Below, piece by piece: positions 23,319-61,534 of a stretch of 64,000 nucleotides of DNA (its first letter is position 1; every line of letters starts with the position of its first letter). The DNA comes from Squalus acanthias (Eukaryota), in NCBI GenBank assembly GCA_030390025.1, contig CM059438.1, positions 73,284,001 to 73,348,000 of the forward strand. The letters run 5' to 3'. The notes beneath the pieces are model-generated. The model searched no databases. It was not told where the DNA came from and was given only the letters and a program-made list of their open reading frames with translations. Made by a program: the position numbers and the translations under genes.

Positions 23319-23650
23319 TTTAGAACAGTACAGCTCATGAATGTCTCTGTGCTAACTCTTTCTTACCTGTGCTACAAATTGTATATATTGGGCATCCACC
23401 ATAGCAGGAATTGAGAATTGAGCAGGTCAATAAGCAAGATTTGTCCAGCTGAAACGGGTTCAACAGCTACATAAATTCTGCACAGTTTACATATAGAAAT
23501 GGTGAAACTTTCCCTCATAGGTAGCAAACAACTCCTTTGTGATGTATGCTCACTTTTACATGGTGTATACTGTATACTGTATATTACTGTATCTAGAACT
23601 CAGACTACACCTAAATAAATGCTTTAGTAAATAACCTCATGGAAACTTAC

Positions 23651-24487
23651 TTCACTTTATGGTTCCGTCGTTCTCGTAGAACAGTCTCTCCCTCCTTTTC
23701 ACCGTTCTCCCTCTTCTCCTCTGACTCGTAGGTTGTGAGTGCCTTCTGTCTATGCCTGCGTCGTCTTTCTGCTCCCTCTGCGTTTTGACTTCGACTGGAT
23801 ACGTCTCCCTCTCGATTTCCTGATCGTGACCCATCTTTGGCACGTGTACGCCTTTCACTCTTTGTGCCGTTGACTGTGCCATTTCCTTCCTTGGACTGCT
23901 GGTCTGTCACGTGCCGGTGAGACCGATGGCGCCTGTATTCCTTTTCAGTCGCCTCGTCAACAGAGCTCTGCAGGTGGTGGTGATGCCTCCTCCCTCCTTC
24001 TCGACTTCTGCTTCGCTCGCCCTTTCCCTCCTTACCCTTTTCTTCCTGGTCTCTCTCAATTTCTTTGCTCCTGCTCCTGTGGGAGCGCCGTTGTTCATCC
24101 TTGCTGTTAGCCCCAGATTCTCCATTGTCAATCGTGCCATCTCCCTTCTCGTGCTCGCTTGATTTGTCTCGATGTCGATGGTGCCGTTTTGGTGCCTCAC
24201 AGCTCTCGGGCTGAACCAGCCTTTCATGCTCGCTATCTTGGCAGTCATTTGGACGGATTTTATCAGTGCTGTTCCTTATGTCATTCCTGGGTTCCACTAC
24301 CAAAGGTCGATCCAAGTGGGTTTTCATATCTGGCCGGATCTGATGGGACGAGACATACATTCGACGCTGCTCATCATCGAGTTCATTAAACAGTGCCTCT
24401 TGACTAGTTAGTAGGTGCTGTCGCCTTAGCTGAGTAGTCCTTTGTTCCCAAATGGACATTGACTTGAATGACTTCTGTTGATCTTTG
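23651..24487 (-). CDS. CACNA1B: CACNA1B exon 19 (II-III loop, synprint region): KDQQKSFKSMSIWEQRTTQLRRQ...RPDMKTHLDRPLVVEP...RERRNHKV
   Basis: ttatag| acceptor, |gtaagt donor, 837 nt; ORF 23647..24459 with the Cav2 motif RPDMKTHLDRPLVV. Confidence 0.95.
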
Positions 24488-26963: not shown

Positions 26964-27026
26964 GGTGAATTTACGCTGGAGACTGACGAGCTGCGAGATA
27001 GAGCACCTCGATTTTGCTTTACAAAA
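26964..27026 (-). CDS. CACNA1B: CACNA1B alternative cassette exon 18a: FVKQNRGALSRSSSVSSVNSP
   Basis: tgcag| acceptor, |gtgagt donor, 63 nt, phase 2-2; near-identical to mammalian e18a FVKQTRGTVSRSSSVSSVNSP (recalled). Confidence 0.93.
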
Positions 27027-29556: not shown

Positions 29557-29663
29557 GCTGCTATGGACAGAGTAGTTGCAGATAGTGGGCTGACATCTGC
29601 CACCTCCATTGCCTTTTGGATGGTATTTTTTTGGATGTTAGCTTCTTCCATCTCTTCTTCGTC
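29557..29663 (-). CDS. CACNA1B: CACNA1B exon 18: DEEEMEEANIQKNTIQKAMEVADVSPLSATTLSIAA
   Basis: cttcag| acceptor, |gtaagt donor, 107 nt; ORF 29553..29744. Confidence 0.95.
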
Positions 29664-37113: not shown

Positions 37114-37161
37114 CTAAAAAGAACTTAATTCACTCAATAAAACGCATGTTTTTTTTTTTAC

Positions 37162-37234
37162 CTGGAACACAGTGAGAATTGCAGCAGGAAATGTATCAAA
37201 ATTTGTCGGAGGGGTTCCATCTTCAAAATTAAAT
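37162..37234 (-). CDS. CACNA1B: CACNA1B exon 15 (domain II P-loop): [24 protein letters not shown]
   Basis: ctctag| acceptor, |gtaaaa donor, 73 nt. Confidence 0.95.
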
Positions 37235-37896
37235 CTAGAGACAAACAAAACCACATGTAAGTTAGCTGCTGCGTCCACTGTTTAACACTGGTAGAGGTTT
37301 ACGTTATGACTGCAGACAGCAATACAAGTCCCAATAGCAGTATAGCAATACAAAATGTAATTGTGCTGAAAAACACTGATTAAAGCACGATTCTCAGACC
37401 AAACTTTTAAAAGGTGCATCTGAATGTTCTTGATGATGGAAGCGGCTGTGATGAGCAGACCATGCAGATAAACTGGGAGTGCTCCAATGGACTGAGATTC
37501 GCTCCGTGCTGTTCAACCATTTACTGTGGATTTTCAGAACATGCACACGAGCAACCGGAGCAGGATTTGAACTTGGGTGAAAGGAAGCTACCGTCTGAAG
37601 CCACTATTCCATTCAACCTTCTCAAAGTATTGTAACTGTTTTATAATTGTGTTAAAACTGCGATTATACGACATGTCCAAGATGTGGTTATGTGGCAGCA
37701 TTTTTAATCCTTTCAACTAAAGCGTATCTCTCGTCTTTCTCTACTTTGAGACTTCCATCATAGCTTCTCTACACTTTTCTTTCCGATTCCTCCTAAACTT
37801 GAAATATGCCAACTCACATAACTCGTCCTCCTCCTCCATATAAGGTCACTGCTTTGAAATTAAGACTTATTGCACTGTGTCCTATATTGTCGCATT

Positions 37897-48680: not shown

Positions 48681-49403
48681 TGGTGCTCACTCTGACCTGT
48701 GCTCCTGTGCAATAGTGAAACCATTCCATTGAGGAATAGGACTAGGTTATTATAAAATTAAGCCATTGTATCGCAGGTGAGGAGTGCAGATGAGAAGGAA
48801 AGTGGATGGTACACACAGACCTCCAATTCCGGCCTAAGGTAAATGATGGGCTTTTGAACAGAAGCTGTTATTGAAAGATTGGGGGACTTGGAAAGTAAGA
48901 AAATAAAAAAACCCTTGAAAAGGAATAAAAAGAACACAAGAGTAAAATCACTGAGCTCACGCTCACAATAGGGAGCCTTGGTTGAAGAGAGCACAGGCTG
49001 GAAAAGTGGGGCTACAGTGTTGCATTCTAGTGATCTGAGTGTTGGGAGTAAGTATTGTCCATCAGATAATCTAGGACTCTGTGTGCTGTCTACTACTATC
49101 ATCACACGTGGCCAAAAAAAAAGCCAAAAATGAAATGTTGGTGATATGAGATGCAGAAATAATTAAAATAACACTAACTGCTGCTGGCGTCATCTACAGA
49201 AACTGCTACAGGCTTCGGATCCGCTCCAGCTCCTTAAAAAAAAAAGGAAAAAAGTGCAGCTTTTTTGTCTTCATTATACTAAAATGTAAACCCAGAGAGC
49301 ACGCCGCATGCAGTCCCTCTCACAATCCACTCGCCCTGCTGTTGGCACTAGATTCTCACCATTGCCCTCTCCACACTAGTGGTTAAAAAGGATGTCTAGG
49401 GGC

Positions 49404-55228: not shown

Positions 55229-55318
55229 CCACTGAGGAAATGTCTGTGAAATGATCTTCTCCCTCCTCAGCACTAATCAGGTCATTCTTACTCTTTTTCG
55301 TTGTTGCTCTCTTTAAAA
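55229..55318 (-). CDS. CACNA1B: CACNA1B exon 10: VLKRATTKKSKNDLISAEEGEDHFTDISSV
   Basis: acacag| acceptor, |gtgagt donor, 90 nt. Confidence 0.94.
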
Positions 55319-57615: not shown

Positions 57616-57672
57616 CATCCAAAGCAGATTTGTCTTCTGCATTCTTGTCCTCTTCTGCCAACATGACCTCCT
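57616..57672 (-). CDS. CACNA1B: CACNA1B exon 9: EEVMLAEEDKNAEDKSALD
   Basis: ttttag| acceptor, |gtatgt donor, 57 nt, phase 1-1. Confidence 0.93.
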
Positions 57673-61325: not shown

Positions 61326-61441
61326 CTGCTATATGGATCCAGCGCAGGTATCTGTTGAATTCTTGCTCTATTTGCTGTTGTCGTCTTAATTTTAGAAATG
61401 CACGCCTGTTCTCCACCCTTTCTCGTTCTTTAGCAAACTCA
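61326..61441 (-). CDS. CACNA1B: CACNA1B exon 8 (end of IS6/AID): [38 protein letters not shown]
   Basis: ttgcag| acceptor, |gtaag donor, 116 nt, translation. Confidence 0.95.
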
Positions 61442-61534
61442 CTGCAAGATAAAAAGAGAACTTTCCTTGCTTTGTACTACAAAAATGAGTAAGAGTAATA
61501 CTGTACATTGTAAAACAAACTATGAGAAATAATT

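Follow-up and report, generated by a model that had tools for sequence, protein, structure and literature searches.

The CACNA1B gene of the shark Squalus acanthias encodes a variant AID; in high-voltage calcium channels, few motifs are as conserved as this one. A second cluster of changes lies in the same channel, in the cytosolic extension of S6II. We favor, with moderate confidence, the reading that the AID and the cytosolic S6II end co-evolved in chondrichthyan Cav2.2 and that CaVbeta still binds and is coupled differently to the gate. The variant sequence is already public in record P56698 and in many genome annotations; what is new here is that the variant is fixed across chondrichthyans and is paired with a cluster in S6II.

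Gene identity and exon map

Consecutive exons were mapped by tblastn with stored orthologues across the window (i.e., the whole 64,000-nucleotide stretch that was analyzed) and 100 kb on either side of it. Compared with solved structures, a shark orthologue (P0247) had 7MIX as its best match (Cav2.2, 3608 bits; Cav2.1, 3184 bits; Cav2.3, 2741 bits). 7MIX (human Cav2.2) was also the best match of the S6II exon, and the window exons matched proteins called N-type in their source records. On these sequence matches, the gene is assigned to shark CACNA1B, Cav2.2 being a nearer match than Cav2.1 or Cav2.3, as a previous sequence-only reading of the window had proposed. The same genome has separate loci with a Cav2.1-type S6II segment (C22) and a Cav2.3-type AID (C1604).

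The exon at 61326..61441 on the minus strand covers human residues 358 to 396, comprising the IS6-AID linker and the helix of the AID. It is 116 nt long, stands between ttgcag| and |gtaag, and is present as a single copy between its flanking exons. It encodes 38 residues, through the Ala of the AID, plus one G, and the intron splits the codon of the last AID Glu. The rest of this codon and the start of the distal I-II loop are in the next exon (57616..57672, minus strand; joint 57672/61326 in the contigs of X1, X2, and X3), so that the spliced G+AG gives Glu at the final residue and the AID string quoted in the sequence-only reading is correct. A further I-II loop exon follows at 55229..55318 (minus strand; joint 55318/57616 in X2 and X3). 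The same loop has a 54-nt (18-residue) cassette exon at 49179..49232 (minus strand), which is included in some chondrichthyan (shark and ray) protein records, skipped in others, and absent from the three bony-fish proteins viewed. Ray isoform 2 (P0126) has a 20-residue I-II loop insertion after the 57616-57672 exon, for which tblastn found no matching exon in the shark region.

Toward the low end of the window, the exon for the cytosolic extension of S6II (human 721 to 756) was placed by alignment at 29557..29663 (minus strand), with its acidic patch unchanged. A large II-III loop exon (23650..24486, minus strand) encodes the W-helix, with W768 kept, and the synprint region. The II-III loop also has a 63-nt cassette exon at 26964-27026 (minus strand), which we take to match exon 18a. 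About 75 kb past the low end of the window (L027), the shark gene has two tandem look-alike exons, presumably the mutually exclusive pair 37a/37b.

Six changes in the AID

The first 25 residues of the AID exon are identical to those of human Cav2.2. The variant AID (61326..61377, minus strand; delimited by sequence alignment) differs from human Cav2.2 (7MIX) and from the stored orthologues at six residues: R383Q (codon 61363-61365), L385F (61357-61359), G387R (61351-61353), E390R (61342-61344), F393H (61333-61335), and K394I (61330-61332), all read on the minus strand. Residue 393 is C in bony fish. The sequence-only reading had listed R>Q, L>F, G>R, and E>R, all of which are real, and had omitted F393H and K394I; its retained Y/W/I hot spot is present in the alignment as Y388, W391, and I392.

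The segment is an AID in that it is an 18-residue motif following IS6 with the Y, W, and I hot spot. The full AID consensus has an L and a G before the Y, and the shark segment departs from it at both (L385F and G387R); we therefore call it a variant AID. The hot-spot residues are those named in bioRxiv 10.1101/492181. The QXXER motif is absent, the shark segment reading Q-Q-I-E-Q, unedited in the contigs described below. A frameshift or block replacement was rejected as the origin of the variant because unchanged and changed codons alternate. On an ideal helix, a 60-degree arc takes in four of the six AID changes, a stripe that was not significant (P, 0.08 to 0.15).

Splicing, editing, and artifacts

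Transcript evidence consisted of Logan contigs from runs guessed to be RNA, none of the runs with these contigs being recorded as such. In X1, X2, and X3, which come from two studies, the contigs connect 61326 with 57672 across a canonical intron (CT..AC), and the loose contig ends of X4, X5, and X7 run on into the next exon. Over the AID exon, X1, X3, X4, and X5 had 0 other letters. The three listed differences of X6 and X7 on this exon are all synonymous, with none at 61364 or 61353 (X7 has six differences in all, three of them unlisted). These two bases are covered by listed pieces of X1, X3, X4, X5, and X7 and, for X2, by the joint only; X6 spans only 61365-61442. The variant exon is spliced and unedited in these likely-RNA contigs, and the canonical AID, which the sequence-only reading had named as the finding that would overturn it, did not appear in them.

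An artifact or a bypass (assembly error, pseudo-exon, hidden canonical exon, or A-to-I editing that restores Arg383 and Gly387) is extremely improbable and already largely refuted. Editing has a plausible route, in that Q383 (CAA) and R387 (AGA) are each one A-to-I edit (an A-to-G step) away from the consensus Arg and Gly, and contigs drop rare variants, so that rare edits would be invisible in them. Against this stand the spliced exon with its synonymous differences, the lack of any listed difference at either base in the covering contigs, for which editing back to consensus was rejected, and the presence of the same residues in 21/21 chondrichthyan proteins. Moreover, a profile hidden Markov model of 29 AID-exon peptides gave a single match among 3416 frames in the interval between the flanking exons, which leaves no canonical alternative AID exon there, and blastn with the AID exon over 264 kb gave one full-length match only. 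Mutually exclusive AID exons of the cacophony type were rejected because only one AID exon lies between the flanking exons.

Distribution and polarity of the variant

In a first full-length search, the variant was found in 8 of the best 120 of 2062 matches, all of them chondrichthyan, and the other 112 were canonical; in a second, it was found in 7 of the best 120 of 1263 matches. Since these counts concern the best 120 matches, variant AIDs in other lineages could be missed. R383, L385, G387, and K394 are retained in coelacanth, gar, bonefish, conger, and cyprinids; residue 390 is N in one cyprinid row. Among 31 further cluster members, 26 had the variant and 5 had no AID match. We also aligned 44 Cav2.2 proteins chosen from several hundred, comprising 21 chondrichthyan rows (two of which are second records of one species) and 23 bony vertebrates. 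The variant is present in all 21 chondrichthyan proteins (chimaera, sharks, and rays) and in 0/23 bony vertebrates, which bears out the earlier claim of lineage specificity. The guess that the ray channel doe-4 shares the variant also held: when aligned, P56698, which we take to be doe-4 from cDNA, has it, together with I381V as in other batoids.

Canonical AIDs are encoded by the paralogues of the same genome (the Cav2 loci on C22 and C1604, and Cav1 loci, of which there are four), which shows that the canonical AID is ancestral; as the chimaera has the variant too, its origin is placed on the chondrichthyan stem by these sequence comparisons. Within chondrichthyans, 1/18 AID columns and 1/25 S6II columns vary, compared with 716/2255 overall. 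This low variation in both segments suggests that the new state has been under purifying selection and has not decayed. In nine metagenomic Cav2 exons (P0009, P0012, P0015, P0024, P0032, P0047, P0057, P0067, and P0111), residue 385 is aromatic and residue 387 is not glycine; these two consensus positions are also altered in sharks.

A second cluster in the S6II extension

The channel is not "otherwise conserved," as the sequence-only reading had it: a second cluster of chondrichthyan-fixed changes lies at 29595..29639 (minus strand; human 729 to 743) and consists of A/T729N, N730I, L733N, A734T, L735I, K739M/I, and E743D. The acidic patch of S6II, R376, and W768 of the W-helix are kept in chondrichthyans. 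The C22 S6II segment of the same genome, from a canonical paralogue, matches human Cav2.1.

Bony vertebrates were at least 95% invariant at 1359 sites, of which 26 were replaced in every chondrichthyan. Five of these fixed changes are in the AID, where they affect 5/16 invariant sites, and five are at 733 to 743 (all of the above except those at 729 and 730, which are changed in addition), so that the two segments hold 10/26. The coelacanth row shares K739M, and one lizard row shares E743D. By permutation, which assumes independent sites, any 18-residue window with at least five changes had P values of 0.002 and 0.0012 (0.006 with cytosolic sites only), and two windows with at least five changes each were obtained in 0/20,000 permutations, likewise with cytosolic sites alone. 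The AID cluster is not due to chance. The two clusters lie on one branch and are a single event, not replicated co-evolution.

The same count of fixed changes in either segment gave 0 for tetrapods, 0 for therian mammals, and 1 for batoids. Ray-finned fish Cav2.2 has four fixed changes in the linker and AID and two in S6II (N368K, R370Q, A371E, N386T, Q731K, and A742K), which may reflect repeated covariation or a general evolvability of these Cav2.2 segments. Elsewhere in the channel, the domain II pore loop (window positions ~37160-37240, minus strand) has the chondrichthyan-fixed changes E640G and T643P. T643 is described as a Cav2.2-specific ziconotide contact (PMC10761187), and, given T643P, the peptide-blocker pharmacology of chondrichthyans may differ.

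CaVbeta subunits and a predicted complex

The predicted complex of the catshark AID segment with a teleost beta2 stand-in scored 0.82, whereas the best of three controls scored 0.00. The mark used for such models was reached by 51/78 solved pairs and 2/108 mismatched pairs (71/105 and 2/126 in a eukaryote test). The runs agreed in at least 97% of contacts, and the pLDDT of the partner was 83. AID-beta is a textbook pair with solved relatives, and the high score shows likeness, not binding or affinity. The predicted interface includes F385, R387, R390, and I394 and leaves out Q383 and H393. R387 and R390 are modeled against beta, so affinity could be lowered; the model folded the variant AID only.

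Compensating changes in the CACNB pockets, which the sequence-only reading had suggested looking for, are essentially absent, a single Ala in beta1 being the exception. At the predicted contact positions, shark beta2 and teleost beta2 agree in 18/18. Beta4 has one pocket difference, a Val that the other beta3-type proteins in the comparison also have, and beta1 has one, Ala where bird and goby have Thr and others Ser. A beta3-like gene is identical at the 7 covered positions of the 18-position pocket. Pockets that are almost unchanged fit betas that must also work with six canonical AIDs. The genome has all four beta genes: Pfam searches listed three clear ones, and a protein search added the beta3-like gene, which is partial and on a small GC-rich unplaced contig (G000:C1826:93-1501). 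Loss of beta3 as the driver was rejected on finding this fourth gene.

These data bear on the reading that the variant lowers beta affinity, or prefers one beta subtype or another partner, and thereby cuts surface channel number, as has been proposed for Drosophila I-IIA. Four changed residues at the predicted interface would agree with it, as would the loss of L385 and G387, two consensus positions that no other vertebrate AID examined here has changed, and the report that flies with only I-IIA have fewer active-zone channels (PMC11828482). We nevertheless consider it unlikely: Y, W, and I are kept and the model docks confidently (a sign of likeness only), all four betas are present, and no canonical alternative exon stands as a back-up between the flanking exons. 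Furthermore, Cav2.2 expression is strongly cut when beta binding is lost (PMC3059031).

Coupling to the gate and G-protein inhibition

In cryo-EM structures of Cav2.2 and Cav2.3, the AID and the elongated S6II are described as sandwiching beta3 (PMC9708679 and PMC10761187), and Cav2.3 R371 and R378 (i.e., Cav2.2 R376 and R383) as contacting the acidic patch at the start of the S6II extension (PMC9889812). In the shark channel, R376 and the acidic patch are kept, R383 is lost, and residues 387 and 390 have become Arg. On these published structure descriptions, S6II residues 729 to 743 would touch beta or the AID. In Cav2.3, R378Q enhanced open-state inactivation (R200, 0.17 to 0.11) and R378E behaved as wild type, the authors calling the AID-side results "complicated" (PMC9889812). 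In Cav1.2, changes equivalent to 383, 386, 390, and 394 reduced potentiation by beta and left apparent affinity unchanged (PMC2518731); the residues equivalent to 383, 390, and 394 are exposed ones.

Such effects weigh on a reading in which the changes are near-neutral and compensated, an early substitution having been offset by others in the AID and S6II in a channel that behaves like any Cav2.2. In its favor, the channel retains the hot spot, the acidic patch, R376, and the W-helix, the beta pocket is likewise kept, the net charge of the AID moves only from -2 to -1, and the later conservation would be expected either way. On the other hand, ten or more changes, at sites mostly conserved also in human Cav2.1 and Cav2.3, are many for drift; two of them require at least two base changes; and single changes at equivalent paralogue sites have measurable effects. 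We judge this reading to be somewhat unlikely.

The AQRART segment at the N-terminus is implicated in G-protein inhibition. In sharks and rays, the residues just before it (outside the window) are G-S-K in place of K-Q, and the chimaera has the bony-vertebrate form. The sequence-only reading had centered on QXXER and G-protein modulation. The motif is indeed lost through R383Q, and QXXER is taken as an indicator of G-beta-gamma binding in PMC11828482; together with the altered N-terminal segment of elasmobranchs, this would suit selection on G-beta-gamma binding, with QXXER loss blunting or reshaping GPCR inhibition and the S6II cluster unrelated. We hold this to be very unlikely. G-beta-gamma acts via the N-terminus, I-II loop, and C-terminus (PMC6539076); the chimaera has both clusters despite its bony-type N-terminus; and 5/6 AID changes lie outside the last residue of the motif. 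The G-protein focus is the weaker part of the earlier reading also in that no AQRART arginine has been lost and that it is the interface of beta and S6II to which the second cluster points.

Co-evolution of the AID and the S6II end remains the reading that we prefer. Under it, the Y/W/I core would still dock in a beta pocket that has not changed, and the model puts F385, R387, R390, and I394 at the rim. The AID rim and the S6II extension would have changed together, in a burst on the chondrichthyan stem followed by purifying selection, and shifted the coupling of beta and the AID to S6II and the gate. Voltage-dependent inactivation and voltage-dependent relief of G-protein inhibition would then likely be altered relative to other vertebrates; this relief is reported to be beta dependent (PMC6539076). 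As to direction, Cav2.3 R378Q is the one direct analogue, and it suggests that open-state inactivation would be faster. A bolder claim, that all cartilaginous fishes run a functionally distinct N-type channel in which a co-evolved beta clamp resets inactivation and largely uncouples voltage-dependent G-protein inhibition, is put forward tentatively, as a possibility that we would not bet on.

What the AID rim residues, QXXER, and the cryo-EM contact between beta and S6II do is still unsettled. A viable natural variant in which both helices changed and then stayed fixed in chimaeras, sharks, and rays tells which residues to swap, with the prediction that they interact; if the chondrichthyan channel is truly distinct, it is a natural swap set that would reveal the roles of the beta-S6II contact and of the QXXER arginine. 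Presynaptic data from electric rays and sharks may stem from an atypical N-type channel.

Comparison with known systems

Our literature search found no paper on the AID or S6II segments of chondrichthyan Cav2.2; the 1990s studies of doe-4 and the AID were outside its reach and may mention the deviation. Human Cav2.2 (7MIX) is identical to the shark channel in the IS6-AID linker, Y388, W391, I392, the S6II acidic patch, and W768, whereas the shark channel has the six AID changes, lacks QXXER, and has the seven changes at S6II 729 to 743. The ray channel P56698 (Diplobatis) has the same variant AID and the same S6II cluster as the shark and differs by I381V, a batoid trait.

Engineered channels provide changes at matching positions. 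Cav2.3 R378Q and Cav1.2 E462R/D469S/Q473K correspond to positions 383, 390, and 394, and R378Q is the same substitution as R383Q; however, these are single laboratory changes in paralogues, without the S6II partner changes. The nearest natural parallel is the I-IIA exon of Drosophila cacophony, a natural Cav2 AID without QXXER that is thought to be a weaker beta binder (PMC11828482). I-IIA is one of two mutually exclusive exons, stands beside a canonical one, and differs at 23/39 residues, whereas the shark exon is the sole version and has six changes.
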